Shown here: piece after piece, positions 6,138 to 64,000 of the stretch
Numbering within the stretch: position 1 is the stretch's first letter
Layout of the letters: the number at the start of each line of letters is the position of its first letter
NCBI GenBank assembly: GCA_016125285.1
Contig: WGMA01000016.1
Coordinates: 1 to 64,000, forward strand
Length of the DNA stretch: 64,000 nt
From: Phycisphaera sp.
Lineage (GTDB): Bacteria; Planctomycetota; Phycisphaerae; Phycisphaerales; Zrk34
Direction of reading: 5' to 3'
Program-made: the position numbers and the translations under genes
Notes under the pieces: model-generated
Databases searched by the model: none
What the model saw: the letters and a program-made list of their open reading frames with translations, nothing else
What the model was told of the DNA's origin: nothing

Positions 6138-6176
6138 AGTGTTTGCCTCTCGGGTCTAAGCGAGCGGTCGGGTGCC

Positions 6177-7829: not shown

Positions 7830-7954
7830 GACGGCGCCCTCCCGTCGCGACGACGCTCACGCCGAGCCGCGACCGGACCGGTCGGGGGTGTCCGCCGGCG
7901 ACCGTGACTCAAACGCATGGGTGTCGGGTCGTCCATCGTGGGTGCGCGTCCGTG

Positions 7955-46828: not shown

Positions 46829-48145
46829 TCAGGTGAGGCTCAGCGGGCCGTCGGCGCAGTAGTCGGGGTTGCCGAAGGTGTTGATGCGGTGGCCGAACCC
46901 GTGGGCGAGCGCCATCAGCAGGCGGTTGTGGGCGACGCCCTTGAACTTCAGCGAGCGGCCCATCTTGAAGTCGAGCCCGCCGCCGACCAGCACGAACGGG
47001 ATGTTGTCCAGCGTGTGGCTGTTGCCCTTGCCCAGCTCGTTGGTCCAGACGATCAGCGTGTTGTCGAGCAGCGTACCCTCGCCGCCGGGCTCGGGCGTCT
47101 CGGCGAGCTTCTTGGTGAGGTACGCCAGCTGCTCGCAGTACCACTTGTTGATGCGTGTGAGCTTGTCCTTCGCGTCGTTGTTGGAGTCCGGCTCGTGCGA
47201 CAGCCCGTGGTGTCCCTCGTCGATGCCCAGCCAGCGCATCTTCGCCTGCCCGACCGAGCGGGTGAACTGCAGCGTGGCGATGCGGGCGAAGTCCGCGGCG
47301 AAGCTGTTGACCAGCAGGTCGATCTGCGTCTGGCTGATCTTCGGCATGTTGTCGTTGTCTTCGACGATGCCCGGCTCGAGCGTCGGCACGGCGTGGTCGT
47401 TGCCGCGCTGCTTCGACGCCTGCAGCTCGCGCTCCATCTCGCGCACCCACTGCGCGTGCTCCTCGAGCAGGCGGCGGTCGTCGGCGCTGACACGCGTGCG
47501 CAGCTTAGCGAGGTCTTCCTGCAGCTCGTCGAGCACGCTCTTGAGCGACTCCTGGTCCTTCACGCGGCCGTACATCTTGTCGAACATCTGGTACGGGTCG
47601 TCGATCGGCGCCAGCGGCTGGTTCGGCCCGGCGTACGACATGCGTGTCCAGGTGTCGGCGCGTTCGGGCACCATGACGCCGAACTCCAGCGAGCCGAAGC
47701 GCGTGCGCGTCGCGGCGTTCTTCTGCAGCTGGTTCTTGATCTCCTGGTCGATGGAGATGCCGCTGGACCAACCGGCGGGCGTGTGCGAGCCGCCCTGGAT
47801 GTTGCCGGGGAACAGCTCGATGCCGGTCAGCAGGCAGCCGATGCCGCGCATGTGGTTGTCGCCGTCGCCGCGCACCTTGTCGCACACGCCGTTGAGGAAC
47901 AGCGTGCGGTTCTTGAACGGTTCGAGCGGCGAGGTCGAGTCCTTGAGGTTGTAGTTTTCGCCTTCCTCGCCGGGCCAGAAGTTCTCGGGGATCACGCCGT
48001 TGGGGCTGAACATGACGATCAGCCGCTTCTTGCGCTGCGTGGTCTGCGCGAAGCCGAGGCTGGGCATGTTGAGCAGGAACGGCAGGGCGGCGGCGCTGAG
48101 GCCGAGCTCCTGCATGAACTGTCGTCGTGTCTGTGGCTTGCCCAT
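46829..48145 (-). CDS. Tat-signal protein of the Planctomycete DUF1552-like family (partner of the PSCyt/DUF158x-type protein)
   Basis: The twin-arginine signal is '[19 protein letters not shown]'. It is about 438 aa and lies immediately downstream of a ~800-aa CxxCH-headed protein, the characteristic gene pair. The family assignment is from memory and was not confirmed. Confidence 0.55.
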
Positions 48146-48166
48146 GGCGCTACTCCTTGCCCTTCC

Positions 48167-50572
48167 TCAGTTCGATTTCGCCTCGGCCTTCGGTCGGTCG
48201 GGTGCGGTGGTCGCGATGGTCACCGCGGCGTTGACGATCAGGTCGCGGATGTTGTAGCCGTGCGCCGCGAAGTCGCGACGCAGCTGCTCGGCCTTGTCCT
48301 GACCGTAGGCCATCATCGACTGCTTGGCCAGGTGATGGAACAGCTGCATGACGAACGCGTCGTGCGTCTCTTCGCTCTCGGCCAGGAAGCTGGCCAGGTC
48401 GTACGCGTCGTTGAAGTTGCGGACCTTGCCGGTCGGCAGCTCGTACGCGCCGCGCGCGTCGATCGGCTTGCCGAACTCCTTGTCGCGGAACCGGCCCACG
48501 GCGTCGAACTGCTCGAGCGTGAAGCCCAGCGCGTTGATCATCCCGTGGCACGCCTGGCACGCCTTCGGCTCGGTCTGCAGCGTCACGCGCTGACGCGTGG
48601 TCATGCCCGGGTGCAGGTCCGGCGCGAGCGGCGCGACGGCCTTCGGCGGCGGACGCAGCGCCCGGCCCAGCACGCTCCGCACGATGAACACGCCGCGGTG
48701 GATCGGCGACGTGGCGTCCGGGTACGCGAACCGCGCCAGCACGTACGGGTGCGTCAGCACGCCCACGCGCTTCGGCGTCGTCGCGGCGACCTTCTCGAAC
48801 GGCGCGTCCTTCGGCAGGTTCACGCCGTAGTACGCGCCGAGACGACCGTTGACGTACATCGCGTCGGACGTCAGCAGCTGGCGGAAGTCGCCGCTGCCGT
48901 TCCACACCACGTCGTCGAGGAACAGGTCCAGCGACGTCCGCAGGTCCGAGGTGACCGCGGCGTCGAAGCCCTTGAACTGTTCCTTGTCCTTGGCCATGTC
49001 CGGCACCTGCTCGATGTCGAGCCAGTAGTGCATGAACTGGCGGACCTTCGCGTGGCAGCGCGGGTCGTCGAGCATGCGCTGCGCCTGCCGGGCGACCTGG
49101 TCGGGCTTGGCGAGCTGGCCCTTCGCCGCCGCGTCGAGCAGCTGCCGATCGGGCAGCGAATCCCACAACGCGAACGACAGCCGCGACGCCTGCGCGTACG
49201 CGTCGTCCTCGTCGCCGCCGAGGTTGTGGTACAGGAACCGCGGTGACTCCATCGTCAGCATCACCACGCGTTTCAGGCCGAGCTTGATGTCGTCGGCGCC
49301 CTCGAACTGCTTGTCGACGTAGAGGCGACGCTCGAAGTCGGTCAGCGGGCGGCGGAAGGCGCGCTCGACGAACGTCGCGGCGAACGCGCGGACCTTCTCG
49401 TCGCGCTTGTCGTCCTTGATGCGCGTGTTCGACAGCTCGTACATGTGCCCCACGACGTAGTCGGCGACCTCGATCGCCGCGCCCGTCGTCGCGTCCGCCC
49501 ACGCCTTGGACACCGACGACCCGCGCTCGTAGCCGACGCTGCGATCGTCCGGCGGGAACGGCGTGTTCAGCACGCAGACCTCCGTCGCGCTCGTCGGCGA
49601 CAGCACCCGCGCGGGCACGACCTCCACCTCGCGGTGCGGCGGCCGCCACCACAGCTCCACGAAGCTGTGCTCGGGCAGCTTGCTCTTGTGCTCCTTCTCG
49701 TCGCCCACGCCCTGGCTGTGACACGAGAACTCCACCGCCAGCGGGTACACCTGCCCGGCGATCAGGAAGATCGTGCCGCGGTACTCGATCTGGTTGCCGG
49801 ACTTCACCCACGCGTCGATGAACGCGTCCTTGGTCTCGGAGAACTCGTTATCGTCGCGGTTGCCGCGGCCGTCCTGGTTCAGCCAGAGGCGCACGGCGTG
49901 ATCGCTCTTGAGGATGAACTCGTAGTTGCCGGTCTCCGGCGCGACCAGCGCGCCGCTCCAACGGGCGCTGAAGCCCTTGGGATCGAACCTGTCGTACAGC
50001 GGGTTGGACTTGTCGAAGTGCGCCAGCACGGACGGCTCGATGCGCTCTTCGAGGCGGTCACGCCCCATCGAGCGGCCCTTGAAGAACTCGGCGCGCAGGC
50101 CGTCACGCTTGTCGAGGCTGACGTTGCGGCGGAACGAGCCGATCAGGTCGGCCACGACGTTGCGGTGCTGCGTGACGGTCAGCCGCGACAGCTCGATCCG
50201 CGGCGGGCGGTGACGGGCCTGGGCGATCGGCGAGTAGAACGCGTCGTAGATGTAACGCGACACCGCCTCGGCGTCCTTGCCGACGCACTGCTCGGGCTTG
50301 TCGTCCGGCATCGATTTGGTGACGTAGTTGGTCAGCTGGGGGACGGTCTTGTCGCCGACGAGCGGCTTGGAGTACTCGCCCTTCACGCCGCCGCCGGTCT
50401 TGCCGTGGCACGACGCGCACCGCTTCATGTAGATGCTTTCGCCGGGCTCCTCGGCGCGGCCGGTGGCCGTCGCCAGCAGCGCCAACACGACCACGCCCGC
50501 GACGAAGACCGCGGTGTGCCCTGGATGACGCGTGCCCAACCCAAAGTGAAACTTCCGCTTCGGGGTCATCAT
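48167..50572 (-). CDS. Planctomycete cytochrome-c-domain protein of the PSCyt3/DUF1585-1587-1588-1592-1595-like family
   Basis: It starts 'MMTPKRKF...' with a signal/TM helix, then 'YMKRCASCHGKTGG' (CxxCH) near the N-terminus, and is about 800 aa. It is paired with the DUF1552-like gene. Confidence 0.6.
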   Translation of the reverse strand: MMTPKRKFHFGLGTRHPGHTAVFVAGVVVLALLATATGRAEEPGESIYMKRCASCHGKTGGGVKGEYSKPLVGDKTVPQLTNYVTKSMPDDKPEQCVGKDAEAVSRYIYDAFYSPIAQARHRPPRIELSRLTVTQHRNVVADLIGSFRRNVSLDKRDGLRAEFFKGRSMGRDRLEERIEPSVLAHFDKSNPLYDRFDPKGFSARWSGALVAPETGNYEFILKSDHAVRLWLNQDGRGNRDDNEFSETKDAFIDAWVKSGNQIEYRGTIFLIAGQVYPLAVEFSCHSQGVGDEKEHKSKLPEHSFVELWWRPPHREVEVVPARVLSPTSATEVCVLNTPFPPDDRSVGYERGSSVSKAWADATTGAAIEVADYVVGHMYELSNTRIKDDKRDEKVRAFAATFVERAFRRPLTDFERRLYVDKQFEGADDIKLGLKRVVMLTMESPRFLYHNLGGDEDDAYAQASRLSFALWDSLPDRQLLDAAAKGQLAKPDQVARQAQRMLDDPRCHAKVRQFMHYWLDIEQVPDMAKDKEQFKGFDAAVTSDLRTSLDLFLDDVVWNGSGDFRQLLTSDAMYVNGRLGAYYGVNLPKDAPFEKVAATTPKRVGVLTHPYVLARFAYPDATSPIHRGVFIVRSVLGRALRPPPKAVAPLAPDLHPGMTTRQRVTLQTEPKACQACHGMINALGFTLEQFDAVGRFRDKEFGKPIDARGAYELPTGKVRNFNDAYDLASFLAESEETHDAFVMQLFHHLAKQSMMAYGQDKAEQLRRDFAAHGYNIRDLIVNAAVTIATTAPDRPKAEAKSN

Positions 50573-50874
50573 GGCGGAATTCAATGCCGCGAGAACGCGA
50601 AAGTGAAGCGCCGGCAGAATTTTGTAGAGCGATTGAGACAAATGCGTGTGCCCGTGGAGGTTCGTGTCGAGCGACGCGGCGCGTCGCTCTATCGATCTAT
50701 TGGCCCGAACGCGCGGATTGTTACGCGCCTGGCGGCGGTCGGGGACTGATTGATTCGTGCAGTGCTTTGATTCGATCGGAGCTTGGTTCGGCGAGGTTCT
50801 TGCCCCTACAATGCGGCCACGATCGCTCACGTGGGCACGTGGGTGGGCACACATACACGTCCAATTCAGATGGG

Positions 50875-53787
50875 ATGGGCTTCATGGTACGGAACGTTAC
50901 AGTTGCTCTGTTGACGGTCCTGCTGGCGGTCGCCGCGCCGATGTACGCGGCGGCGCCGGTGCAGGAGATTTCCAAGTCGATCGACGCCGAGGCGGGGCTG
51001 GTGGTGGTGATCGGCGGCGGCGCCGACACCGCGGACATCGCCGCGGGCCTGGGCAACGGCGACCGGCTCGTGCACGTGATCGCCTCGGACTACGCCGAGC
51101 TCAAGCGTGTCAACGACGCGGTCGCCAAGGCGAACCTCAAGGGCTGCGTCACCGTCGAGGTGCTGGGCCTGGCGACGCTGCCGTACCGCGATCACCTGGT
51201 CAACGCGATGGTGATCACCGACGCGGACAAGGCGGCGAAGGCCGGGCTGAAGATGGAAGAGGCCACGCGGAGCGTCATCCCCGAGGGCGTGATCGTGCAG
51301 TGCCGCGGCGGCAAGGTTCAGGTCACGCGGACGCCGGTGCGTAACGACATGGACGTGTGGACCCACCGCTACCACGCGGCGGACGGCGTGCCGGTGTCCA
51401 ACGACAAGGTGTTCGCGATGCCGATCGGCTTCAAGTGGAACGCCGACCTGCCGATGAACTTCGACAACCCCGAGCGGGCGGCCAACCGCTACTCGTCCAC
51501 GCGGGCGCTGATCGTCGACGACGGCCGCATCTTCACGTTCAGCGAGTGTGTCGTGGAGAACCTCGGCGAGGGCGTCAGCTCGAAGTTCGGCACGGATCAG
51601 TACCTCACGTGCCGCGACGCGTTCAACGGCCGGCTGCTGTGGCGCAAGAACGTCGGCGACACCTACTACGGCGGGCTGTACATCGAGAACACCGCGCCGC
51701 TGATCAGCACGGGGCGTCGGCTCTACACGGCCGGGGCGAACGGCAAGATGGAGGTGCTCGATACGCGCAGCGGCGAGACCGTGCGTGAGCTGCCCACGAA
51801 GTTCATCCCCGGCGTGATCGCCGCGTCGCAGGGCGTGGTGGTGACCACGACGTGGTCCGGCGGCAAGCAGATGGGCTCGGTCAAGCATTACGACCGCCGG
51901 CGCATGGACTGGGAGATCAGCGCGGGCACGGTGGAGGCCTACGACGACGCGACGGGCAAGCTGCTGTGGAAGAACGACACGCTGGGCACGTCGCTGCTGA
52001 TCGCCGACGGAACGGTGTTCATCGTCAACCGCAACGAGCGGGACGCGCTGGAGGCCGAGCACAACAAGCGTCGCGAGGGCGTCGACCTCAAGCACCCGCC
52101 GCAGAAGGTCATCGCGTACGACCTGAAGACCGGCAAGCAGGTCTGGTCGGTAGACGACACGAGCTTCAATGTCAGTGACCAGCCGCTGAGCCTGGAGTCG
52201 GCGGGTCGCGGCGCGGTGGCGGTGGGGCTGGACGGTCGGTCGAAGGTCGCGATCCTCGCGGCCGACAGCGGCAAGCTGCTCGAGGCCGACGCGCTGAAGG
52301 AGGCGAACGACTACTTCTTCCGCTTCCGCAACCACATCTGCACGCCGGTGCTGCGTGTGGGCGACGTGGTGTTCAACAACCGCGGCGGCAACATCAAGGA
52401 CGGCAAGTCGAACACAAACTTCGGCGGCGCCCGCGCCGCGTGTCTGACCGGCACCGTGCCCGCCTACGGCGCCGGGTACATCGCGCAGAATTGGTGCCGC
52501 TGCTCGCCGGGCCAGATCCCCGGCCTGCTCGGCGTGGCGCCGATCGGCAAGGTCCCCACGCCCGAGGAGATGGAGGTCCCCACGCAGCCGATCAAGCTCG
52601 GCGACTACAGCGAGGGCGAGGACGGCGTGGCGCACCCGTCGAACTGGACGTCGTTCCGCGGCAACGCCGAGCGTAGCAGCAGCGTCGCGATGGACGTGCC
52701 CGACGACGTGAAGGAGAGCTGGTCGGTCAAGCTCGCCGGCGACGAGCTGGCCGGCACGATCCAGCGTGACTGGCAGTCGTACCTCAACAGCCGCCTGACC
52801 GCGCCGGTGCTCGCGGACAACCTCGCGATCGTCGGCGATATCGATCACAACGAGATCATCGCGTTCGACACCGCCAAGGGCGCCGTCAAGTGGCGGCACA
52901 TGCTCAGCGGCCGCGTCGACACGCCGCCGACCGTCTACAAGGGCATCGTGCTCATCGGCGATCACACCGGCTACGTCACGGCGCTGAAGGTGAAGAACGG
53001 TCAGCCGATCTACAAGCTGCGGATCGCGCCCGACGAGAAGCGGATGATGTCGTACGGCAAGGTCGAGTCGGTCTGGCCGGTGATCGGCGGCGTGCTGGTC
53101 GCCGAGGGCAAGGCGTTCGCCTCGGCGGGGCGCACGCAGGGCTCCGACGGCGGCCTGGTCGTCCGCGCCTTCGAGCCGGAGACCGGCAACCCGATCTGGG
53201 CGCAGGCCATCCCGCAGTCCAGCCCCGAGCTGACCGAGAAGAAGCCCAAGCGCAACGACGCGCTGGCGCGGCACGGCGAGTTCGTCACCGTCATGGGCCA
53301 CTGGCTCCGCCTCGACAACGGCGCGTTCGCACCGAAGCCCGAAGGCGACACGCTCGACATCGGGCTCGAAGGCCTCTACAGCTGGAACTGGACACGCCTG
53401 GGCGACCGCAAGTTCATGGCGATCGGCTACGGCTCGATCAAGGGCGACACCATCGCGTGGAACGACAGCTACGCCGTGACCACCCGTCACGACAGCAGCG
53501 GCCTGATCGCCTCGCGCGTCGACCCGAAGAAGGTCCGCGGCTTCCCCGGCCTGCCCAACATCTATCAGCCCACGTGCATGGTCGTGTGCAACAACGCCCT
53601 GATCCAGGGCGGCGCCATCCTCGACCAGCCCGCTGACAAGGGCTTCATCCGGGCCGTCAGCCTCACCGACGGCAAGGTCCTGTGGGAAAAGAAGTACACC
53701 AAGAAGCTCGCGTTCAACGGCCTGGCGGTCGATAACGGCGGGATCCTCGCCAGCTTCGACGACGGGTCGGTCGTCTGCCTCAAGTAA
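50875..53787 (+). CDS. Giant secreted PQQ-like beta-propeller protein with N-terminal methyltransferase-like domain (paralog of 26896..30987)
   Basis: 'GLVVVIGGGADTADIAAGLGNGDRLVHVIASD' parallels 'GGLIVHVGCGDGKLTAALAGERFNALGLDAD' in the other giant protein. 'WTHRYHAADG' parallels 'WTHYLHDPTN'. Many 'D..TGK..W' blades are present. Confidence 0.8.
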   Translation: MGFMVRNVTVALLTVLLAVAAPMYAAAPVQEISKSIDAEAGLVVVIGGGADTADIAAGLGNGDRLVHVIASDYAELKRVNDAVAKANLKGCVTVEVLGLATLPYRDHLVNAMVITDADKAAKAGLKMEEATRSVIPEGVIVQCRGGKVQVTRTPVRNDMDVWTHRYHAADGVPVSNDKVFAMPIGFKWNADLPMNFDNPERAANRYSSTRALIVDDGRIFTFSECVVENLGEGVSSKFGTDQYLTCRDAFNGRLLWRKNVGDTYYGGLYIENTAPLISTGRRLYTAGANGKMEVLDTRSGETVRELPTKFIPGVIAASQGVVVTTTWSGGKQMGSVKHYDRRRMDWEISAGTVEAYDDATGKLLWKNDTLGTSLLIADGTVFIVNRNERDALEAEHNKRREGVDLKHPPQKVIAYDLKTGKQVWSVDDTSFNVSDQPLSLESAGRGAVAVGLDGRSKVAILAADSGKLLEADALKEANDYFFRFRNHICTPVLRVGDVVFNNRGGNIKDGKSNTNFGGARAACLTGTVPAYGAGYIAQNWCRCSPGQIPGLLGVAPIGKVPTPEEMEVPTQPIKLGDYSEGEDGVAHPSNWTSFRGNAERSSSVAMDVPDDVKESWSVKLAGDELAGTIQRDWQSYLNSRLTAPVLADNLAIVGDIDHNEIIAFDTAKGAVKWRHMLSGRVDTPPTVYKGIVLIGDHTGYVTALKVKNGQPIYKLRIAPDEKRMMSYGKVESVWPVIGGVLVAEGKAFASAGRTQGSDGGLVVRAFEPETGNPIWAQAIPQSSPELTEKKPKRNDALARHGEFVTVMGHWLRLDNGAFAPKPEGDTLDIGLEGLYSWNWTRLGDRKFMAIGYGSIKGDTIAWNDSYAVTTRHDSSGLIASRVDPKKVRGFPGLPNIYQPTCMVVCNNALIQGGAILDQPADKGFIRAVSLTDGKVLWEKKYTKKLAFNGLAVDNGGILASFDDGSVVCLK

Positions 53788-54066
53788 GGCCGACACGCGA
53801 CAGCACGACACGCATCGACCAACGCCCCGTGCCCCGCGCGGGGCGTTGTCTTGCGCCGCGGCGATCCGCCAGTGTGGGCCGGTTGGCGCGGTTCGAGCCA
53901 AAATGCCACGCCGGCGCGGACCGCGCGGCGGTGGTCGGGATACAATGCCCCCGCACCGGGACCGGGCGACGGCCCACCCCGCTGACCGTCCGACGGCGTT
54001 GTCGGGCGGGAGGTCACACGCGTGACCTCGACTACTCAATCGCGATGGGCACGCGAAAGGATCGAT

Positions 54067-55119
54067 ATGCGTTCTTATCTGGCAGCGGCCATGGTTCTGG
54101 CGTTCGTGCTCCCATCGGTTTTGCGGGCGGAGGCCGGCGTGACTTACGAAGGCGACAGCGGCCCCGGCAAGGGCAAGCACATCGTGTTCATCGCCTCGGA
54201 CCACGAGTACCGCGGCGAAGAAACCTGCCCCGCGATCGCACGCATCCTCGCCAAGCGCTACGGGTTCAAGTGCACCGTGCTGTTCGGGCTCGACGGCGAG
54301 GGCAACGTCAAGGCCGGCTCGTCGAACATCCCCGGCATGGAGGCGCTCGACGACGCGGACATGCTGTTCCTGTTCATCCGCTTCCTGGCGCCCGACGACG
54401 AGTCGATGAAGCACTTCGTGGCGTACCTCGAGCGCGGCGGTCCGGTCCTCGGGCTGCGGACGTCGACCCACGGGTTCAACGGCCTGAAGGGCGACTACGC
54501 GAAGTACAACTACAACAACGGGGACCCCAACTTCGAGGGCGGCTTCGGCCGTCAGGTCCTCGGCGAGACGTGGAACCCCAAGAAGGGCGCCGGTCACTAC
54601 GGCAGCAACCACAAGTACAGCACGCGCCTGCACACCGTGCCGGAGCAGGCGAGCCACCCGGTGATGACCGGCTGCAAGGACATGCACGTCATGGCGGGCG
54701 CCTACTCGGCCGTGCCCCAGCCCAACTCCGTCATCCTCGCGACCAATCAGGTGCTGGATAGCATGTCGCCCGACGCCAAGCCGCTCGAAGGCAAGACGCC
54801 TCAGCCGGCCGTGTGGGTGCGGACGTACCAGCTGCCGGGCGGCAAGGAGGGCCGGGCGTTCTGCTCCACGCAGGGCGCGTCGCAGGACATCCTCAGCGAC
54901 GACTTCCGCCGCTGCATCATCAACGGCGTGTTCTGGTGCATGGGGATGGAGGACGCGATCAAGGCGGACATGGACGTGTCGTTTGTCGGGCCGTACAACC
55001 CCGCAACGTTCGCGTTCGGCGGCGAGCGCAAGGGCGTGAAGCCGGCCGACATCGCGGGCTGGGACACGCCGATCTGGAACCCGGACGCACCGACCGACGC
55101 CCCGAAGAAAAAGAAGTGA
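54067..55119 (+). CDS. ThuA-like (trehalose-utilisation) class I glutamine-amidotransferase-like domain protein
   Basis: It has a signal peptide and the ThuA-like pattern 'HIVFIASDHEYRGEE...ADMLFLFIRF...RTSTHGF'. The start chosen is MRSYLAA at 54067. Confidence 0.65.
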   Translation: MRSYLAAAMVLAFVLPSVLRAEAGVTYEGDSGPGKGKHIVFIASDHEYRGEETCPAIARILAKRYGFKCTVLFGLDGEGNVKAGSSNIPGMEALDDADMLFLFIRFLAPDDESMKHFVAYLERGGPVLGLRTSTHGFNGLKGDYAKYNYNNGDPNFEGGFGRQVLGETWNPKKGAGHYGSNHKYSTRLHTVPEQASHPVMTGCKDMHVMAGAYSAVPQPNSVILATNQVLDSMSPDAKPLEGKTPQPAVWVRTYQLPGGKEGRAFCSTQGASQDILSDDFRRCIINGVFWCMGMEDAIKADMDVSFVGPYNPATFAFGGERKGVKPADIAGWDTPIWNPDAPTDAPKKKK

Positions 55120-55129
55120 GACGCCATCC

Positions 55130-56794
55130 ATGATGACGATTCGACAATCCGCGTTCTGCGCCGGAGTGATGTTCGTTGCGATGCTGGCGCTGTTCGTCGC
55201 CGTTTGCCATCCCCAACCGGCGCACGCGGCGGCGGCGGCGCCCGGCAAGCGCCCGAACGTCGTGTTCATCCTCGCCGATGACATGGGCTACTCGGACCTG
55301 GGCTGCTACGGCGGCGAGATCGAGACGCCGAACCTCGACGCGCTGGCGGCGGACGGGCTGCGCTTCACGCAGTTCTACAACACCGCACGCTGCTGGCCTT
55401 CGCGTGCGGCGCTGATGACCGGGTATTACGCGCAGCAGGTGCACCGCGACGGGCTGCCGGGCTTGGGCGGCGGCGGTGGGGGCAGGCGTCAGGAGTGGGC
55501 GCGGCTGCTGCCGGACTTCCTTGCGCCGCTCGGCTACCGCAGCTATCACAGCGGCAAGTGGCACATCGACGGCAAGGTGCTCGACGCGGGGTTCGACCAC
55601 TCGCTCGACGTGCGCAATCACGGCGACAACTTCACGTGCAAGGGCAACCTGGTCGACGACAAGCCCGTCACGCCGCCGGCCGACGAGTCGGGCTATTACT
55701 CGACGACGGCGATCGTCCAGCACGCGATCGACTGCCTGAAGGATCACGCCGCGCACTACGCCGGCCGGCCGTTCTTCAGCTACGTCGCGTTCGTCGCGCC
55801 GCACTTCCCGCTGCAGGCCCCGCAGGACGACATCGCCCGCTACGCCGGCAAGTACGACGCGGGCTGGGACGTGATGCGCGAGCGGCGTTTCGCGCGGCAG
55901 AAGGAGCTCGGCGTCGTCAACACCACGCTGTCGAAGCTCGAGCCGGACGTCGGCCCGCCGTACTACTTCGCCGACGCGTTCGAGAAGCTCGGCCCCGGCG
56001 AGGTCCGGTACCCGGTGCCTTGGGACCAGCTGACCGACGAGCAGAAGAAGTTCCAGTCGACGAAGATGTCGATCCACGCGGCGATGGTGTACCGCATCGA
56101 TCAGGAGGTCGGGCGGCTCGTCGCGCAGCTCAAGGCGATGGGGCAGTTCGACAACACGCTGATCTTCTTCGCGTCGGACAACGGCGCCAGCGCGGAGATC
56201 ATGGTGCGGGCGGGCGGCCACGATCCAAGCGCCCCGCCGGGCAGCGCCAAGACGTTCCTGTGCCTGGGGCCGGGCTTTTCGAGCGCGTGCAACACGCCGC
56301 ACCGGCGGCACAAGACCTGGGTGCACGAAGGCGGGATCAGCACGCCGCTGATCGTGCACTGGCCGGCGGGCATCAAGGCGCACGGCGAGCTGCGGCACAC
56401 GCCGGGCCACTTCGTCGACATCATGCCGACCGTGCTCGAGGTCGCCGGCGGTGAGAAGCCGAAGCGGTGGAAGGGCGAGGCGCTGCCGCCGGCGCCCGGT
56501 CACAGCCTGGTCGCGGCGTTCGCCGATGACGTGACGATCGCGCGCGACCACCTGTGGTGGCTGCACGAGGGCAACCGCGCGATCCGCGTGGGTGACTGGA
56601 AGCTCGTGGCGGCGAAGGGCGATCCGTGGGAGCTGTACGACATGACGTGCGATCGCGCCGAGTCACACAACCTCGCGGCCCAGAAGCCCGAACTCGTCGA
56701 GCGGCTCGCAGCCGAGTGGGACGCGCAGACCAAACAGATCAGCGAGTTGGCGAAGCAGACCGCGGACCTCGGCGGCAGGGCGAAAAAGAAATAA
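55130..56794 (+). CDS. Sulfatase (formylglycine-dependent arylsulfatase)
   Basis: 'NVVFILADDMGYSDLGCYGG' and the FGly motif 'CWPSRAALMTG' are present, with a signal peptide. Confidence 0.9.
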   Translation: MMTIRQSAFCAGVMFVAMLALFVAVCHPQPAHAAAAAPGKRPNVVFILADDMGYSDLGCYGGEIETPNLDALAADGLRFTQFYNTARCWPSRAALMTGYYAQQVHRDGLPGLGGGGGGRRQEWARLLPDFLAPLGYRSYHSGKWHIDGKVLDAGFDHSLDVRNHGDNFTCKGNLVDDKPVTPPADESGYYSTTAIVQHAIDCLKDHAAHYAGRPFFSYVAFVAPHFPLQAPQDDIARYAGKYDAGWDVMRERRFARQKELGVVNTTLSKLEPDVGPPYYFADAFEKLGPGEVRYPVPWDQLTDEQKKFQSTKMSIHAAMVYRIDQEVGRLVAQLKAMGQFDNTLIFFASDNGASAEIMVRAGGHDPSAPPGSAKTFLCLGPGFSSACNTPHRRHKTWVHEGGISTPLIVHWPAGIKAHGELRHTPGHFVDIMPTVLEVAGGEKPKRWKGEALPPAPGHSLVAAFADDVTIARDHLWWLHEGNRAIRVGDWKLVAAKGDPWELYDMTCDRAESHNLAAQKPELVERLAAEWDAQTKQISELAKQTADLGGRAKKK

Positions 56795-57561: not shown

Positions 57562-57621
57562 GCGCGATGTTTCGCGCGGTGCGGGCATGAAAAAAGGCGA
57601 CTCCCGGAGGAGCCGCCAATG

Positions 57622-57694
57622 TGGGCAAGGGCGGACTTGAACCGCCGACACCGGCATTTTCAGTGCCGTGCTCTACCAGCTGAGCTACTTGCCC
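57622..57694 (-). tRNA. tRNA-Phe (GAA), CCA not encoded
   Basis: The reverse complement reads GGGCAAG-TA-GCTC-AGCTGGTA-GAGC-A-CGGCA-CTGAAAA-TGCCG-GTGTC-GGCGG-TTCAAGT-CCGCC-CTTGCCC-A. This gives a cloverleaf with anticodon GAA, a TTCAAGT T-loop and an A73 discriminator. Confidence 0.9.
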
Positions 57695-58259: not shown

Positions 58260-58438
58260 TCCTAAGCCACCCCATTTGATTTCCCCGTGACGAGAAAGTT
58301 AGCGGAGGTCGGCGTGTCGTTCAAATCGGGCGATGGGGTATCCGCCCGTGTCGCTAACGCGGGGCGACACAAAACCCGACGCCGGCACACGCGAGATGCG
58401 CCGGCGTCGGGTGGAACGTTGTGGGGCGGGCGAGCGGT

Positions 58439-59305
58439 TTACGGCTGCGGCCAGGCGAGGCGGACGGTGAAGCCGGACGGCAGCTGCTCGTCGGGGTTGT
58501 CGATGGTGAACACGCAGCGGAAGGTCTGGCTGGCGGGCTCGATCTGGGGCTCGACGCTCTTGAGCTTGCCGATGACGGTCTTGCGTGTGCGGTTGACGGG
58601 CGGGCCGGCGTAGAAGGTGTACTCCTTGCCGATCTGCAGCTCGCCGTAGAGCTGCACGGGCAGGAACATCTGCGCCTCGAGCGGGTTGAGCGCGATCATG
58701 TAGATGATCACGTCGTCGCTGCGGTTGTTGGAGACGGTGGCGCCCTCTTCGACGCCGAGCTGGAGGATGCGTCCGTCGAACGGCGCCTTGATCTTGTAGC
58801 GATCGAGTCGGAGCTGCTCGAGGTCGAGCGACGACTTGGCGCGGTCGAGGTCGATCTGGGCTCCGGTCTGCTGGAGCTCGCGCTGCCGGAGCTCGAAGTC
58901 ACCGATCGCCTTCTTCTCGAGCAGCCGCTTGGCCTGGTCCACCTGCAGCTTGGCCTCCTCGAGCAGGGCGGCGCGGCGGTCGACCTCGAGCCGGGCGGCC
59001 TCGACCTGCACGATCTGCAGCTCGTCGTCCATCACCGCCAGCACGTCGCCTTCCTTGACCGAGTCGTCCTCATCGACGTTGATCTTCTTGATCAGGCCTT
59101 CGAGCGGCGCCATGAGCGACACCTTCTTCGACGGCTTGACGAGTCCGGTAAGTCTTTCGTCGTCGGGGGTGATCGGCTTGAGCTGCAGGGGCTGCTCGAT
59201 GTCGCCCGCCGCGGCGCCCTGACTCTGGCCGGTCGAAACCGACGCGACGGCCAGCGCGGCGAGCACGGCGGTGAAGCAGAATAACCTTGACAAAGTTTTC
59301 ATCAT
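58439..59305 (-). CDS. HlyD-family membrane-fusion (periplasmic adaptor) protein
   Basis: The start chosen is MMKTLSRLF at 59305, with signal/TM. The biotin-lipoyl-like region is 'GLIKKINVDEDDSVKEGDVLAVMDD'. A coiled coil 'LEEAKLQVDQAKRLLEKKAI...LRQREL' follows, then the beta-barrel 'IKAPFDGRILQLGVEEG'. Confidence 0.8.
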   Translation of the reverse strand: MMKTLSRLFCFTAVLAALAVASVSTGQSQGAAAGDIEQPLQLKPITPDDERLTGLVKPSKKVSLMAPLEGLIKKINVDEDDSVKEGDVLAVMDDELQIVQVEAARLEVDRRAALLEEAKLQVDQAKRLLEKKAIGDFELRQRELQQTGAQIDLDRAKSSLDLEQLRLDRYKIKAPFDGRILQLGVEEGATVSNNRSDDVIIYMIALNPLEAQMFLPVQLYGELQIGKEYTFYAGPPVNRTRKTVIGKLKSVEPQIEPASQTFRCVFTIDNPDEQLPSGFTVRLAWPQP

Positions 59306-59406
59306 TCCTCCTAATGCCTCATCTTGCGCTTGGATTCGGCGTTCGTCGCCAACTATTGTATCCAAGTCGCCGGTGGAGTCAGGGTAGCCAGAGAGATGAG
59401 TTTCGC

Positions 59407-61335
59407 ATGAGTCAGACGGCCGATCAAGTTCAGCGGCTCGTTCAGCAGGCGTTGGGCGAGTTCGAGCAGCAGATGTCCAGCGACGAGAAGCCCTCGTCGG
59501 TGCTGACCAAGATGATGGAAACGCTGCTGCGCACGACGCAGGGCGTGGGCGCCGTGGCGTGGATGTTCAAGGACCCCGAGCACCCGGAGTTCACGTCGGT
59601 GGCGCAGGTGGGCCCGGCGTCGCCGCTGGTGTTCGACCCCGAGGGCCGCATCCAGACGCCCGTGCGTGAGGTGCTCCAGCAGAGCGCGTCGCAGGGCAAG
59701 CCGATCATCGTCGCGCCCGATCAGCCGGACTTCCAGAAGACGGACCTGCACAACACGTGTCAGTTCATCGTGCCGATCGACGCGATGGGCCGCACGCTGG
59801 GCGTGGTGCAGCTGATCCACACCAAGGACCTGGACCCGAAGGTCTACCGCCAGTTCGTGATGTTCACGCAGCAGGCGTCGCGTGCGGCGGGGCTGTACCT
59901 GGCGCGGCGTCAGAGCAACGTGCTCCGCGAAGACCTCGACGCGGCGACGCGCATGCTCAAGATGTCGCACCAGCTGGTCAAGGTCTCCACGCCCGAGGAC
60001 CTGATCCACGAGCTGGCGAACCTGGCGCGCAACGCGCTGAAGGCGCAGCGCATGTCGGCGGTGGGGTACTGGCGGAACAAGACGGAGGTCGCGTTCAGCG
60101 ACACGATCGAGGTCAACCGCAAGGCGGTGGTCGTGCGGACCGTCGAGCTGCTCGCCGAGGTCGTGCGCGACCGGCGCGTGCCGATGGTGTTCCTCCGCGA
60201 CCAGGAGCTCGAGCCGGAGGAGCAGTCGCTGCTGCCGCTGCTGGAGGATCTGTACAGCCACGGCGCGGCCGAGGCGATCGTGCTCACGCCGCTGATGGTC
60301 GACAAGAAGGTCGTCGGCGTGCTGATCGGCGAGTACGACGACGCGGAAGAGGCGTCGGCGCGATCGGCGACGCAGAGCGAGGTCGCCGGTCAGGCGGCGC
60401 CGCTGCTGAACCAGGTCGTCGAGTGGCGCTACCGCCCGCTGCGTCGCACGAGCGACCTGCTGGCGTCGATCCGCCGCAGGCCGATGTCGTCGATGGGCAA
60501 GGTGGCGGTGGCGGTCGCGATCGTCTGGTTCGTGATCCACGTGCTGTTCTTCGTGCCGATGCCGGTGTCGGTGTTCGGCGAGGCGCGTCTGGAGCCGGCC
60601 AAGCTGGCGCTGATCACGGCGCCCGAGGCCGGGCGGATCAGCGACGTGAAGATCGTCAACGGTGAGGCGGTGGAGCGCGGCCAGGTGCTGGCGACGATGG
60701 ACGACATCGACCTGAAGCTGGAGCTGGCGGAGATCGTGCAGAAGATCAGCGGCGAGCGGGTGGAGCTGGAGGCGTCGCGTCGCGAGGGCGACCGGCCGAA
60801 GCTTCAGGCCTCCCAGCTCCGCATCGAGCAGTATCAGCTGCAGAAGCAGTCGCTGGAGCGCAAGATCGAACGCGCGCAGGTGCGCACGCCGATCGGCGGC
60901 GTGGTGCTCGACGACCGCCCGCAGCGGCTGATCGACCGCACCGTCGCGCAGGGCGACGAGCTGATGAGCGTGGCGGACCTCACGGAGTTCGAGCTGGTGA
61001 TCGACCTGCACGAGGAAGACCTCGCGGCGGTGGAGGAGGCGATCCGCGACGGCAAGGAGGTCGAGGTGTCGTTCCTCAGCCGCCCCTGGCCGGACCTCGT
61101 CCAGCACGCGAAGGTCACGAACATCGAGCAGCTGTCGCCGACGAGCCGCCCCGACGAATACCAGAAGCAGCACGTGTTCCGCATCATCGTGCCGATCGAG
61201 CTGGAGGGCCTGAGCCCGCAGCTGGTGCTGGCGAACCCGACCGGCCGCGCCAAGCTGATCACGCCGCCGCGCAGCATCGCGTACGGCGTGTTCGGCGGCG
61301 TGTGGCGATTCCTGAAGATGACCCTGTTCTTCTAA
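59407..61335 (+). CDS. Tandem GAF-like sensor domains + TM helix + HlyD-type membrane-fusion domain (fusion protein)
   Basis: Two GAF-like blocks cover residues ~30-190 and ~210-370, with 'TLGVVQLIHTKD' and 'VVGVLIGEYDD' cores. The TM helix is 'VAVAVAIVWFVIHVLFFVPMPV'. The HlyD part has the biotin-lipoyl 'GRISDVKIVNGEAVERGQVLATMDD', a coiled coil, and 'VRTPIGGVVLDD'. Confidence 0.75.
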   Translation: MSQTADQVQRLVQQALGEFEQQMSSDEKPSSVLTKMMETLLRTTQGVGAVAWMFKDPEHPEFTSVAQVGPASPLVFDPEGRIQTPVREVLQQSASQGKPIIVAPDQPDFQKTDLHNTCQFIVPIDAMGRTLGVVQLIHTKDLDPKVYRQFVMFTQQASRAAGLYLARRQSNVLREDLDAATRMLKMSHQLVKVSTPEDLIHELANLARNALKAQRMSAVGYWRNKTEVAFSDTIEVNRKAVVVRTVELLAEVVRDRRVPMVFLRDQELEPEEQSLLPLLEDLYSHGAAEAIVLTPLMVDKKVVGVLIGEYDDAEEASARSATQSEVAGQAAPLLNQVVEWRYRPLRRTSDLLASIRRRPMSSMGKVAVAVAIVWFVIHVLFFVPMPVSVFGEARLEPAKLALITAPEAGRISDVKIVNGEAVERGQVLATMDDIDLKLELAEIVQKISGERVELEASRREGDRPKLQASQLRIEQYQLQKQSLERKIERAQVRTPIGGVVLDDRPQRLIDRTVAQGDELMSVADLTEFELVIDLHEEDLAAVEEAIRDGKEVEVSFLSRPWPDLVQHAKVTNIEQLSPTSRPDEYQKQHVFRIIVPIELEGLSPQLVLANPTGRAKLITPPRSIAYGVFGGVWRFLKMTLFF

Positions 61336-61370
61336 GCGTCGGTTGATCGACACGCGGACCCGCACACCCC

Positions 61371-63620
61371 ATGGCGCACCTCCCGTTCCAACCCGAACCG
61401 CCTCAGCCGCCGCAGCACGGCGTGGACGACGAGCCGTTCCAGCGCGACAACTCCGGCCAGGCCGAGCAGGCGATGTCCGAGCCGCTGCCGGCGGTGCGCA
61501 AGGACCTGGAGATCAGCCCGCAGCTGTACCTCGGCAAGATCGTGTACGTCGTGAAGGACCCGGTGAGCCTGACGTATTTCCGCCTCAAGCCCGCCGAGCA
61601 CTTCGTGCTCAAGAACCTCGACGGCCAGGCCAGCGCCAACGACATGGCGCGGAAGCTGGCGCGTCACTTCCCCGAGCAGCCCGCCGACGCCGAGCAGGTG
61701 ATGGTCTTCATCCGCATGCTGCAGGGCTCGGGCCTGCTGCTGGGCCGCGGCGAGTCGCACGGCGAGTGGATCCGCGAGAACCGCGACGAGCGCCGCCGCA
61801 AGAACGTCATGGCGCAGTGGTTCAACTTCCTGTTCATCAAGATCCCCATCATGGACCCGGACCACCTGCTCGACGACATCTACAGCTTCGTGCGGTTCTT
61901 CATGAACCGAAAGACGATGTGGCTGGCGGCGATCTTCCTGGTCTCGTCGCTCGTGGCCATCGGGCTCCACCTCGACCGCGTCGGCGCGCTGAAGTTCCCC
62001 GTGCTCGGGTGGATCAACGCCCTGATGCTCACCGGCACGTTCCTCACGGTGAAGGTCATCCACGAGTTCGGGCACGGCCTGGCCGCCAAACACCGCGGCC
62101 TCGAAGTGCACGAGATCGGCGTGATGATGATGGTGTTCTTCCCTGTGTTCTACGTCGACGTGTCCGACGCGTGGATGGTCACGCGGCGATCCGACCGCCT
62201 GTGGATCAACGCCGGCGGCGTGTACATCGAGTGCCTCTTCGCCTCCATCGCCGCGTGGGTGTTCCTCAGCACCGACCCCGGCGTCGTCAACCAGATCGCG
62301 TTCAACACGATGCTCGCCGCGTCGGTCACCACCGTGCTGTTCAACGCCAACCCGCTGCTGCGGTACGACGGCTACTACTTCCTGATGGACTGGCTGGAGA
62401 TCCCCAACCTCCGCTCCAAGGCCGGCAACTACTGCGGCTACCTCGCCAAGCGCTACCTGCTGGGCATGGACGAGGAGGTCCCGCCGCACGAGGCGTCGAC
62501 CCACCCGATCTTCATGCCGCTGTACTCCGCGGCCGCGGGCGTCTACCGCTGGGTCGTGGTCTTCGGCATCATCGCCGTCGTCTGGCACCTGCTCGATCCG
62601 TACGGCCTCGAGGTGATCAGCGCCATCATGGGCATCGTCGCCGTCGTCACCATGCTGCTGCTGCCGCTCGGACAGATGCTCTCGTTCGTCTGGTCGCAGC
62701 AGAAGGCGCGCACCGGCAGGCAGGTCGCGATCAGCGTGCTCGGCGTCGTGGCGCTGTTCGGCGTCGCCGCCGGCATCCTCGCCATCCCCACCGATCAGAC
62801 CGTCAAGCACCCCGTCGTCGTCCTCGCCGTCGAGCGCCAGCCCGTGTTCGCCTTCGTGCCCGGACGCGTCGACGAGGTCCACGTCGACGACGGCCAGTAC
62901 GTCCACAAGGGCGACCCGCTGCTGACCCTCCGCAACCCGCCGCTCGTCGATCGCCTCGACCAGCTCGGCGTGTCGCTGCGGCTGACCCAGCTCCAGCTCG
63001 AATCCTCACGCATCGACGGCCGCATCGACGTCGTCGCGTCGCTCACCACGCAGATCAAGCACATCCGCGAGCAGATCGACGTGACCAACGAGAAGATCGC
63101 CGAGCTGGTCGTCCGCGCCCCGATCGACGGACGCATCCAGACCTACCGCCGCCTGCAGACCCTGCTGGGCATGATGGTCGACCGCGGCGACGAGATCGCC
63201 CTGGTCGTCGGCGACCAGCAACGCGAGGTCGACATGGTCCTGCCCGAGACCGACGCCTCGCTCGTCGAGGTCGACGACCGGGTCAACGTCCGCCTCTGGG
63301 GCTCGGCCGAGTTGGCCCGGGTCGGCCACGTCGAGCGGGTCGGATCGCAGATTCTCAAGTCCCTGCCCCACGAGGCCCTGTCCTCGCGGTTCAAGGGCGA
63401 AGTGGACACTGTGCCCACCAGTCAGTACAATTCCGCCCCCAGCACGCCGTCCGTGATCGCCACGATCACCATGGACCCGGGACAGGCGCCGCTGCCGCTC
63501 GACGGCAGCACCGGACGCGGCTCGATCATCGTGGAGGAGAAAGTGACCCTCGCCGCCCAGCTGTGGCGCAGGATCCGCCAGGTGATCAGTCCCGACTATC
63601 GCCTGTGGATGATGAAATAA
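61371..63620 (+). CDS. PqqD-like RiPP-recognition-element domain + S2P/M50-type zinc-metalloprotease membrane core + HlyD-type membrane-fusion domain (fusion protein)
   Basis: The N-terminal block 'YFRLKPAEHFVLKNLDGQASANDMARKLARHFPEQPADAEQVMVFIRMLQGSGLL' aligns by eye to PqqD (LNETAAAILELVDGRR...FPEA...DVVEFL). Next is the HExxH 'VKVIHEFGHGLAA' in a TM helix and the S2P LDG-type motif 'NANPLLRYDGYYF', with multiple TM helices. The C-terminus is HlyD-like: 'VDDGQYVHKGDPLLTL', a coiled coil, and 'VRAPIDGRIQ'. Confidence 0.7.
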   Translation: MAHLPFQPEPPQPPQHGVDDEPFQRDNSGQAEQAMSEPLPAVRKDLEISPQLYLGKIVYVVKDPVSLTYFRLKPAEHFVLKNLDGQASANDMARKLARHFPEQPADAEQVMVFIRMLQGSGLLLGRGESHGEWIRENRDERRRKNVMAQWFNFLFIKIPIMDPDHLLDDIYSFVRFFMNRKTMWLAAIFLVSSLVAIGLHLDRVGALKFPVLGWINALMLTGTFLTVKVIHEFGHGLAAKHRGLEVHEIGVMMMVFFPVFYVDVSDAWMVTRRSDRLWINAGGVYIECLFASIAAWVFLSTDPGVVNQIAFNTMLAASVTTVLFNANPLLRYDGYYFLMDWLEIPNLRSKAGNYCGYLAKRYLLGMDEEVPPHEASTHPIFMPLYSAAAGVYRWVVVFGIIAVVWHLLDPYGLEVISAIMGIVAVVTMLLLPLGQMLSFVWSQQKARTGRQVAISVLGVVALFGVAAGILAIPTDQTVKHPVVVLAVERQPVFAFVPGRVDEVHVDDGQYVHKGDPLLTLRNPPLVDRLDQLGVSLRLTQLQLESSRIDGRIDVVASLTTQIKHIREQIDVTNEKIAELVVRAPIDGRIQTYRRLQTLLGMMVDRGDEIALVVGDQQREVDMVLPETDASLVEVDDRVNVRLWGSAELARVGHVERVGSQILKSLPHEALSSRFKGEVDTVPTSQYNSAPSTPSVIATITMDPGQAPLPLDGSTGRGSIIVEEKVTLAAQLWRRIRQVISPDYRLWMMK

Positions 63621-63686
63621 ACTACCCCCGGGGCACGTCGCCACGGGATTCAGTGAGATCGAGAAAGAAGAAGGAAGGTTTAGCAA

Positions 63687-64000
63687 TGGCTAAGGACAAG
63701 AACGACGACAAGACCACCCCGGAATCCGCCGAGCACGCCACCGCCGGTGCGGGCGACACCGTCAGCGCCCCCGCTGAGCAGACTCCCCCGCGCGGCGCCC
63801 AGCTCCGCCTCGACGAGTCCAACGTGCAGTGCTTCTACTCCTCGACGACCCGTCTCTCCGGTTCCGCCGAAGAGATCACCATCGACTTCGCCCAGGGCAT
63901 CCGCCCCGTCGGCCCCAACGCCGCCGTCCTGAAGATCGACGCCCGCGTCGTCATGTCCCCCTGGGGAGCCAAGCGCCTCGTCCAGGCCCTCGAGCAGACC
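63687..64000 (+). CDS. Small hypothetical protein, possibly DUF3467-like (truncated by window end)
   Basis: 'MAKDKNDDKTTPESAE...' has an acidic/Thr-rich N-terminus followed by 'NVQCFYSSTTRLSGSAEEITIDFAQ'. The ORF continues past position 64000. It lies 66 nt downstream of the RRE-M50-HlyD gene. Confidence 0.4.

Follow-up and report, generated by a model that had tools for sequence, protein, structure and literature searches.

A candidate protein secretion cassette joining a leader-recognition domain, a site-2 protease and HlyD-type adaptors in Planctomycetota and Proteobacteria

What is carried across the envelope by an efflux-type adaptor that is fused to a leader-binding domain and an intramembrane protease? 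The question is raised by three adjacent genes near the end of a 64,000-nucleotide stretch of Phycisphaera sp. DNA (contig WGMA01000016.1; the window), each of which encodes a HlyD-type periplasmic adaptor, or membrane-fusion protein (MFP). The list of open reading frames (ORFs) confirms the three genes where the original prediction had placed them. Gene A (61371..63620, plus strand) encodes a 749-amino-acid (aa) fusion of a recognition element for peptides that are ribosomally synthesized and then post-translationally modified (RiPP recognition element, RRE), an intramembrane metalloprotease of the site-2 protease (S2P) or M50 type, and an MFP; gene G (59407..61335, plus) encodes 642 aa with cytoplasmic tandem GAF domains, one transmembrane (TM) helix and a periplasmic MFP; and gene M (58439..59305, minus), by the ORF list and profile searches, encodes a plain MFP of 288 aa. 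The prediction took this group for a module that processes and exports a peptide. On balance we favour a mechanism in which the RRE would bind a leader of the LEPR-XLL type, the S2P would remove it and the adaptors would form the export duct. More tentatively, these parts may belong to an unrecognized protein secretion pathway of diderm bacteria, made up of the LEPR-XLL leader, the RRE, the S2P, a mixed A/G/M funnel and a TolC-type channel, with DUF3467 and short SecA proteins as helpers.

The N-terminal domain of A is a PqqD-like winged helix assigned to the cytoplasm (61488..61745, plus; aa 40–125). Its profile match is borderline: against PqqD (PF05402, gathering threshold 23.4 bits) the full protein scores 21.6 bits and aa 1–160 score 23.8 bits, 37 of 77 A homologues match at E <= 0.01, and a profile search of the PDB with A returned only MFPs, with PqqD at E 0.22. 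The AlphaFold2 model of A (predicted local distance difference test, pLDDT, 88.9) nevertheless shows a beta1-beta2-beta3-alpha1-alpha2-alpha3 domain at aa 47–119 (strands at 47–53, 56–63 and 68–72, helices at 74–81, 89–99 and 107–119, pLDDT 86–97), and this domain is structurally similar to RREs that have been solved with a bound leader peptide. Behind it lies a polytopic S2P core (61911..62780, plus; aa 181–470), recognized by the M50 profile, the NCBIfam model NF041824, AlphaFold2 and hydropathy. Its approximately seven membrane helices would leave the N-terminus inside the cell and the C-terminal MFP in the periplasm. Peptidase_M50 (PF02163) matches A at 29.6 bits, above the gathering threshold of 27.2, and is matched by 76 of 77 A homologues; HlyD_3 and HlyD_D23 were matched in A as well. 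The zinc-binding and catalytic motif HEFGH (62061..62075, plus; aa 231–235) sits inside the membrane helix at aa 214–241 and is followed in the model by a beta-hairpin and then by NPLLRYDG (62349..62372, plus; aa 327–334), which corresponds to the S2P motif NxxPxxxxDG and supplies D333 as the third zinc ligand. The periplasmic MFP module (62787..63617, plus; aa 473–749) closes the protein, with an alpha-hairpin (aa 523–549 and 552–577) of the same length as that of G. The fusion of a PqqD-like RRE to an M50 protease with intact motifs is therefore upheld, the second domain by a score above threshold and the first by its predicted fold.

The order of conservation inside A is of interest for function, as the S2P core ranks highest, the RRE second and the MFP lowest. 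Both protease motifs are retained across 78 A homologues, in which H231, E232, G234 and H235 as well as N327, P328, L329, D333 and G334 are invariant, and R43, D63, R71 and L117 of the RRE are invariant in an alignment that spans three phyla. Such strong conservation of the RRE argues for a conserved ligand and would not be predicted if the domain followed the diversifying leaders of RiPPs. The charged RRE residues could pair with the invariant E and R of the LExRxL[LF] leader that is described below. In a Pirellulales metagenome-assembled genome (MAG; locus L076, 7658-10900) the A ORF extends to 1,080 aa and overlaps the end of G, which may reflect an M–A fusion or an over-extended or frameshifted ORF.

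The remaining adaptors were likewise upheld by profile matches and, for the tandem GAF protein, by an AlphaFold2 model. G matches Pfam GAF at 33.1 bits (gathering threshold 22.4) together with HlyD_D23 and HlyD_3, so that membership in the GAF family is seen in both fold and profile. Its model (pLDDT 82.9) consists of an N-terminal helix, a first GAF domain (59491..59835, plus; aa 29–143; fold and Pfam), a long connecting helix, a second GAF domain (59992..60429, plus; aa 196–341; Pfam sub-threshold at 16.9 bits, the fold clear), a TM helix (60490..60552, plus; aa 362–382; hydropathy and AlphaFold2) and a periplasmic MFP module (60556..61332, plus) with an alpha-hairpin of 27 + 27 residues (aa 434–460 and 463–489). 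The second GAF domain is the better conserved of the two. M reaches 158.8 bits with TIGR01730 (RND_mfp, cutoff 94.9), also matches HlyD_3, HlyD_D23 and Biotin_lipoyl_2, and begins with a signal or anchor helix at aa 5–23 by hydropathy; G and M are both predicted to be type-II single-pass proteins (hydropathy, and AlphaFold2 for G). The MFP modules have the expected order of lipoyl (barrel-sandwich) halves around an alpha-hairpin, followed by a beta-barrel. It was considered whether all three adaptors share one hairpin length; this holds for G and A only, M being longer.

The family to which A belongs is large. More than 3,400 relatives with a length of about 730 aa are on record in the protein database, a HMMER scan with the RRE–S2P part gave at least 3,236 clusters at 50 per cent identity (E <= 1e-30), and the best-scoring 150 clusters are nearly all 700–760 aa long, that is, with the MFP. 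When one genome per species was scanned, A was found in at least 589 species genomes, mostly of Planctomycetota, and the best 80 of the at least 589 loci represent every major class of that phylum plus one Verrucomicrobiota MAG. All ORFs were clustered over 82 planctomycetal-type loci, and nine proteobacterial loci were examined in addition. Many ORF families that seemed conserved in this survey proved to be shadows on the strand opposite real genes in high-GC DNA, and they were filtered out. Just three families are conserved with A in the 82 loci: G, M and a DUF3467 protein (D). G is present in 62 of the 82 and adjoins A in 55 of the 58 that have at least 3.5 kb of upstream sequence, so the arrangement is no chance juxtaposition, and the pairing appears ancient and tight. 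M orthologues (family 3) occur in 49 of the 82, mostly between G and A, and a longer M-type gene in four further loci. In Planctomycetia, Brocadiia (Kuenenia) and Verrucomicrobiota the genes run D-G-M-A on a single strand, and in the clade of the window they run G-A-D with a divergent M.

Relatives outside the Planctomycetota bear most directly on the cargo. A tblastn search of PLSDB plasmids with the RRE–S2P part returned 78 records with 25–32 per cent identity over nearly the whole query, which span Alpha-, Beta- and Gammaproteobacteria, with 18 plasmids from E. coli and 8 from Citrobacter among them; since many are annotated as HlyD adaptors of about 710–730 aa, they would encode the same three-part fusion. 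Hidden Markov models of the planctomycetal families detect A (346–519 bits), G (109–179 bits) and M in proteobacterial loci, and the G–A pair is kept in all nine that were examined. Directly upstream in eight of the nine is a gene for a giant protein of 1,200 to 12,900 aa, and five of these eight giants carry an N-terminal basic stretch and LExRxL[LF] leader (NCBIfam LEPR-XLL, NF012209). TolC, a short SecA paralogue, SapC or DUF3467 are common companions. It is this synteny between leader-bearing giants and the cassette that suggests a giant protein, not a peptide, as the cargo.

The individual cassettes illustrate how these elements recur. A LEPR-XLL protein of 12.9k aa (38.7-kb gene) is followed in Pseudosulfitobacter by G, A, SapC, a short SecA and M; another (31.8-kb gene) is followed in Pontibrevibacter by DUF3467, G, A, a short SecA and M; and a third is followed in Thalassospira by DUF3467, G, A, M and TolC. 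Alisedimentitalea has an 8.1k-aa calcium-binding protein, G, A and SecA, with SapC upstream, and Ensifer an ORF of at least 3,317 aa, G, A, a short SecA and M. The Rhizobium locus (L088) reads G, A, short SecA and starts inside G, so that the upstream gene falls outside the sequence. TolC comes first behind the giants of the remaining cassettes, in which the G-type partner is a shorter protein, G': DUF4347/Ig-like proteins (ALEPRFMF leader), TolC, M, G' and A in Azospirillum; a 2,674-aa ORF, TolC (OEP), M, G' and A in Cupriavidus CH34; and, on E. coli plasmid pKL53-L (NZ_CP030920.1, 109718-129511; 2340-22133 in L099), five genes bracketed by insertion sequences that encode a 4,473-aa DUF4347/Ig-like giant, TolC, M, G' and A. 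The leader of this E. coli giant is MTTIKNRRLRPRAHRFALESRQLFDG, and its C-terminus has no RTX-type end. Among the giant N-termini that were read, those with a basic stretch and LExRxL[LF] are represented by MEALEPRFLLSADP (Pseudosulfitobacter; 30.3 bits against NF012209, cutoff 17), VEPIEPRILLSADP (Thalassospira; 30.6 bits), MALEPRFMFDAAG (Azospirillum; 17.0 bits) and FALESRQLFDGAA (E. coli), and KKSRLQLEALEPRVLLTT and RAHRFALESRQLFDGAA are leaders of this type.

The G' proteins of the TolC-first cassettes (Azospirillum, Cupriavidus and Enterobacteriaceae; L083 6558-7922, L090 10626-11975, L092 10596-11945) are only about 450 aa long, with a shorter cytoplasmic part and no Pfam GAF match, and there seem to be two cassette subtypes, distinguished by G or the GAF-less G'. 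Of 5,426 complete E. coli genomes, 24 contain a copy at least 99 per cent identical to the pKL53-L unit, mainly on a plasmid, and plasmids of Citrobacter and Kosakonia have such copies too; the unit is apparently uncharacterized and mobile among clinical and wastewater Enterobacteriaceae.

Leader-bearing genes also stand near the cassette in several planctomycetes. Mucisphaera calidilacus, whose A orthologue is 45 per cent identical to that of the window, encodes divergently from G a 7,141-aa protein that starts MKKRSSKQQQAKQPARKKSRLQLEALEPRVLLTT and has the leader ...LQLEALEPRVLL (17.7 bits against NF012209). In a Phycisphaeraceae locus (L005, 47 per cent identity) M is adjoined by a gene for a protein of 1,599 aa or more with ...LELETLEPRVLLTT, which scores 15.6 bits against the cutoff of 17, and in a Sedimentisphaerales locus (L016) the leader ...TALEPRIMLSA (19.2 bits) belongs to a protein of 1,490 aa or more that is encoded 3.5 kb from G. 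In at least 10 Isosphaeraceae loci a conserved S8 peptidase with ...LEERQLLAP is found 2–3 kb from A. This peptidase has about 1,400 aa, EF-hand motifs and an N-terminal ...RRRR...LEERQLLAP (for example L022 14219-17173, minus), and downstream of A in the Isosphaeraceae (L018-L052) it is followed in turn by DUF3467, a Kdo transferase (Glycos_transf_N) and, farther on, a short SecA.

Two companions of the cassette may act as cytoplasmic helpers. The short SecA paralogue, of 626–675 aa, has the SecA_DEAD, SecA_PP_bind (preprotein cross-linking) and P-loop_SecA domains without the wing/scaffold or the C-terminal tail. It lies directly behind A in a Verrucomicrobiota locus (L050 12163-14172) and a Planctomycetaceae locus (L070 12254-14134), occurs in four alphaproteobacterial cassettes (L084 11023-13047, L086 12046-14073, L091 15045-17021, L093 14090-16048), and is 8–10 kb off in several Isosphaeraceae loci; the databases label it 'prepilin peptidase', 'DEAD/DEAH box helicase' or 'SecA'. 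The second companion, D, is the small ORF downstream of A that the original prediction had started at 63687 and offered as a substrate or accessory factor. Its start is corrected to 63686, and the window (63686..64000, plus) holds the first 105 of its 135 aa, the gene being cut by the window end and continuing to about 64093. An overlapping 7.9-kb Logan contig extends past 64000 and ends 190 nt after the DUF3467 gene, and the full-length protein was read from the overlapping contig L001. PF11950 matches the window partial at 43.2 bits and the full length in L001 at 59.8 bits (gathering threshold 25). D is soluble, well conserved and folded, unlike a precursor peptide, and it adjoins the cassette in Planctomycetota, Verrucomicrobiota and Alphaproteobacteria in differing gene orders: after A in Phycisphaerae, upstream of G in Planctomycetia and Verrucomicrobiota, and, in Alphaproteobacteria, between G and the gene of the giant cargo (L086 7812-8093, L087 7657-7953 and L081 6173-6505 are further instances of the gene). 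A folded, conserved protein that keeps this company in separate phyla and orders is better explained as an accessory component than as a substrate. When PDB sequences were searched with DUF3467, no significant match was returned.

Two Rhodobacterales plasmids (L084 10209-11030; L095 1057-1500) carry, along with the cassette, a gene for a SapC family protein (PF07277, 245 bits). The only other known setting of SapC is the S-layer type I secretion locus of Campylobacter fetus.

In the favoured mechanism, the cytoplasmic RRE of A would capture the leader at the N-terminus by beta-strand pairing, in the way that RREs bind the leaders of RiPPs, and the S2P active site, which should lie close to the cytoplasmic face of the membrane, would cut the leader off. 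The periplasmic MFPs of A and G, together with M where it is present, would co-assemble into a mixed adaptor funnel that joins an outer-membrane channel, presumably TolC in the proteobacterial cassettes, and transport would run outward by this route. On the cytoplasmic side the tandem GAF domains of G and the DUF3467 protein may act as a regulator, a docking platform or a chaperone, and the short SecA paralogue, with its motor and preprotein-binding domain, would give an ATP-driven push where it is encoded. The cargo would be proteins with a basic stretch and LExRxL[LF] at their start, often adhesin-like repeat proteins of giant size. In the more tentative reading as a secretion pathway, the planctomycetal cassette, which is almost universal and lacks linkage to cargo, could serve the many LExRxLL-starting proteins as a general route of export.

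Several observations weigh against the favoured mechanism. All of the functional claims derive from gene neighbourhood and homology, that is, from comparative genomics, and no S2P is known to serve as a protein-conducting channel. In its minimal form, the E. coli unit, the cassette lacks a dedicated ATPase, yet a cargo of more than 4,000 aa must cross the inner membrane. The window holds no ORF with a LEPR leader, no TolC and no SecA paralogue, so that function here is read from homologous cassettes; most planctomycetal loci have no adjoining cargo gene, and the planctomycetal links to leader genes are observations on individual loci. M is absent near A in many Phycisphaerae loci, and its hairpin region is predicted from the sequences to be longer, at about 72 aa, than the 55–56 aa of G and A. 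Finally, the leader variants of E. coli and Isosphaeraceae are unmatched by NF012209, and the Alisedimentitalea giant has no leader at its annotated start.

A reading closer to the original prediction is RiPP-type maturation and export, in which a small peptide encoded elsewhere would have its leader bound by the RRE and cut by the S2P, its core being guided out by the MFPs. There is reason to consider it, as the RRE–S2P part of A is homologous to the protease MpaP: the best NCBIfam match of A is NF041824, 'daptide biosynthesis intramembrane metalloprotease' (169.7 bits, E 1e-49, aa 66–430 against positions 25–368 of 379 in the model). MpaP is an RRE-dependent leader peptidase of daptides whose leader motif is ELExMEAP (Ren et al., bioRxiv 10.1101/2023.03.08.531785), and that motif resembles LExLEPR. 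Like A, it has an RRE fused N-terminally to an intramembrane S2P/M50 core, for which RRE-guided leader removal is the likely task, so that the claim of a wholly uncharacterized architecture has to be withdrawn for this part of the protein. However, A differs from MpaP by an extra TM helix and a periplasmic MFP of about 275 aa, by its partners (the GAF-MFP, the plain MFP and DUF3467), by phylum-wide vertical conservation and by a substrate that is likely a giant protein. The NF041824 scores of A and of four other family members (three planctomycetal and one alphaproteobacterial, 161–183 bits) also fall below the equivalog cutoff of 300, and neither the daptide genes (MpaA, B, C, D, M) nor Thr-ending precursors were found among the conserved neighbours or the window flanks. 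There is in addition a weaker match to the epipeptide protease family YydH/LiaK (NF058609, 45.9 bits against a cutoff of 225). The M50 proteases EpeP/YydH, TglG and TmoG act in the maturation of RiPPs, and EpeP is thought both to cleave and to export its product (PMC10885120), but these epipeptide and pearlin proteases have neither an RRE nor an MFP.

The neighbourhoods make a peptide substrate improbable. No small ORF is conserved across lineages in the surveyed loci, and with median gaps of 60–90 nt there is no space for a precursor gene within the module; no tailoring-enzyme family is conserved in the 82 loci, and no tailoring enzyme was found in any of the roughly 90 loci overall. The conserved neighbour in Proteobacteria is a giant protein, and the vertical conservation of A in at least 589 species is unlike the sporadic occurrence of RiPP clusters. 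The original prediction had itself noted that it would be weakened if homologues stood beside adaptor or efflux genes without peptide-like ORFs, and this is the situation that was found. Its general logic, in which leader recognition, leader cleavage and envelope export are coupled in one machine, still fits the evidence; the peptide cargo does not, nor has the suggested small-molecule control through the GAF domains gained support.

An equally improbable alternative is regulated intramembrane proteolysis, in which the S2P would cut a membrane-anchored regulator, or else G or M at the TM anchor, when the MFPs sense periplasmic cues or the GAF domains cytoplasmic ones, and nothing would be transported. 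Signalling, with the help of partner proteins and accessory PDZ or CBS domains, is the classic role of S2Ps such as RseP and SpoIVFB, the type-II single-pass topology of G and M is that of usual S2P substrates, and the loci of Planctomycetota have no transporter in cis. Nonetheless, the RseP match of A is insignificant (12.3 bits) where RiPP-type leader peptidases match strongly, sigma and anti-sigma genes are not conserved near the module in the 82 loci, and signalling would leave the recurrent TolC, SecA paralogue, SapC and leader-bearing giants unexplained. Less probable still is ordinary small-molecule efflux through a resistance-nodulation-division (RND), ATP-binding cassette (ABC) or major facilitator superfamily (MFS) pump encoded elsewhere: the MFP modules do resemble MacA, MexA and EmrA in sequence and fold, and NCBI names the family 'HlyD family efflux transporter periplasmic adaptor subunit', but no RND, ABC or MFS gene is conserved beside the module in the 82 and nine loci, and fusions to an RRE with an active-site-intact protease and to tandem GAF domains would be useless in drug efflux.

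The proposed secretion pathway may also be placed among known export systems. With type I secretion and tripartite systems (HlyBD-TolC, LapBCE, MacAB-TolC, EmrAB-TolC, TriABC-OpmH) the cassette shares HlyD-type adaptors with lipoyl, alpha-hairpin and beta-barrel parts, TolC in its proteobacterial versions and adjoining giant repeat proteins reminiscent of type I adhesins, and as in TriAB there are two or three non-identical adaptors per system. Unlike them it has no ABC, RND or MFS protein, the inner-membrane partner being an S2P fused to an adaptor (ABC, RND and outer-membrane protein families are not conserved near the 82 loci), and its leader is N-terminal and presumably cleaved, whereas the signal of type I cargo is C-terminal and uncleaved. 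Leader cleavage coupled to MFP/TolC export is known from peptidase-containing ABC transporters with an MFP (CvaAB-TolC and the NHLP systems), but there a C39 cysteine protease is borne by the ABC transporter and here an M50 metalloprotease by the adaptor, and TIGR03794 (NHLP) matches at merely 20–34 bits against a cutoff of 156. Many cassettes resemble accessory Sec (SecA2/SecY2) in placing a dedicated SecA paralogue beside a very large surface-type protein; they differ in that this SecA is short, that SecY2 and Asp proteins are lacking, and that the setting is diderm with MFPs and TolC, and neither the E. coli unit nor the window contains the paralogue. The cassette would work like a hybrid between an RRE-guided leader peptidase (MpaP) and a TolC-dependent adaptor exporter of the type I or peptidase-containing ABC kind, and it departs from the defining features of each.

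At the Phycisphaera locus itself, M is set apart from the G-A-D genes. An intrinsic-terminator-like hairpin (58374..58412, minus; a 17-bp stem and then a T run) lies 27 nt after the M stop codon and indicates that M is a separate transcription unit here, and the divergent M–G intergenic region (59306..59406) contains a sigma-70-like site for M at 59382-59355 (minus; a consensus match only) that is compatible with the ATG start at 59305. The adaptors had been placed immediately past tRNA-Phe; that gene (57621-57694, minus) is indeed nearby, but it does not adjoin M directly, since a 174-aa ORF and a strong terminator intervene. Two ORFs of 174 and 237 aa that separate the tRNA from M were considered as parts of the cassette and set aside, as they are not conserved in related loci. 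A genomic island beside the tRNA was also considered, and was rejected because GC content is flat across the region (0.64–0.69) and the module is vertically conserved. The earlier observation that the window has no ABC transporter holds to the extent that the LSGGQ signature, in a regular-expression check, is absent from all window ORFs, and a PADLOC scan gave no defence-system match.

The module is flanked in the window by sulfatases (38652-40034 and 55130-56791), PSD/PSCyt proteins and a ThuA-like protein (54022-55116). A DUF1552 (HXXSHH) protein stands beside a PSD/PSCyt protein at 46829-50851 (minus), a pair typical of planctomycetes, and the latter contains DUF1592, DUF1588, DUF1595 and DUF1585 as well as cytochrome c and PA14 domains. 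Three consecutive large ORFs at 5064-10120 (minus), some 50 kb away from the module, carry a Walker A motif of the GspE/PilB/PilT type (GPAGCGKST twice and GPTGSGKST once) and probably encode ATPases of type II secretion or of type IV pili. Long antisense shadow ORFs of up to 1,472 aa, as at 50866-55284, 59353-61365 and 61332-62906 (all minus) and elsewhere, overlie real genes in this DNA of 67 per cent GC.

Within the literature that could be reached, which excluded most subscription journals, neither the A fusion nor the cassette was described, and no function was given for LEPR-XLL or DUF3467, both of which received incidental mentions only. The RRE–S2P fusion by itself is already known. 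If the proposed pathway is correct, it would be a new kind of secretion system, assembled from a RiPP leader-recognition domain, a site-2 protease and an efflux-pump adaptor, and RREs would be found to read the leaders of full-size proteins beyond RiPP precursors. It would assign a function to at least 3,236 clusters (the best-scoring of about 730 aa and named 'HlyD family adaptor'), to DUF3467, a family of bacteria and archaea for which the cassette may be the first functional context, and to the LEPR-XLL and DUF4347 N-termini, which sit on some of the largest bacterial proteins. The five-gene version on the E. coli plasmid is self-contained and makes the system directly testable. For the Planctomycetota, the cassette would then represent a phylum-wide export route for many large surface proteins.

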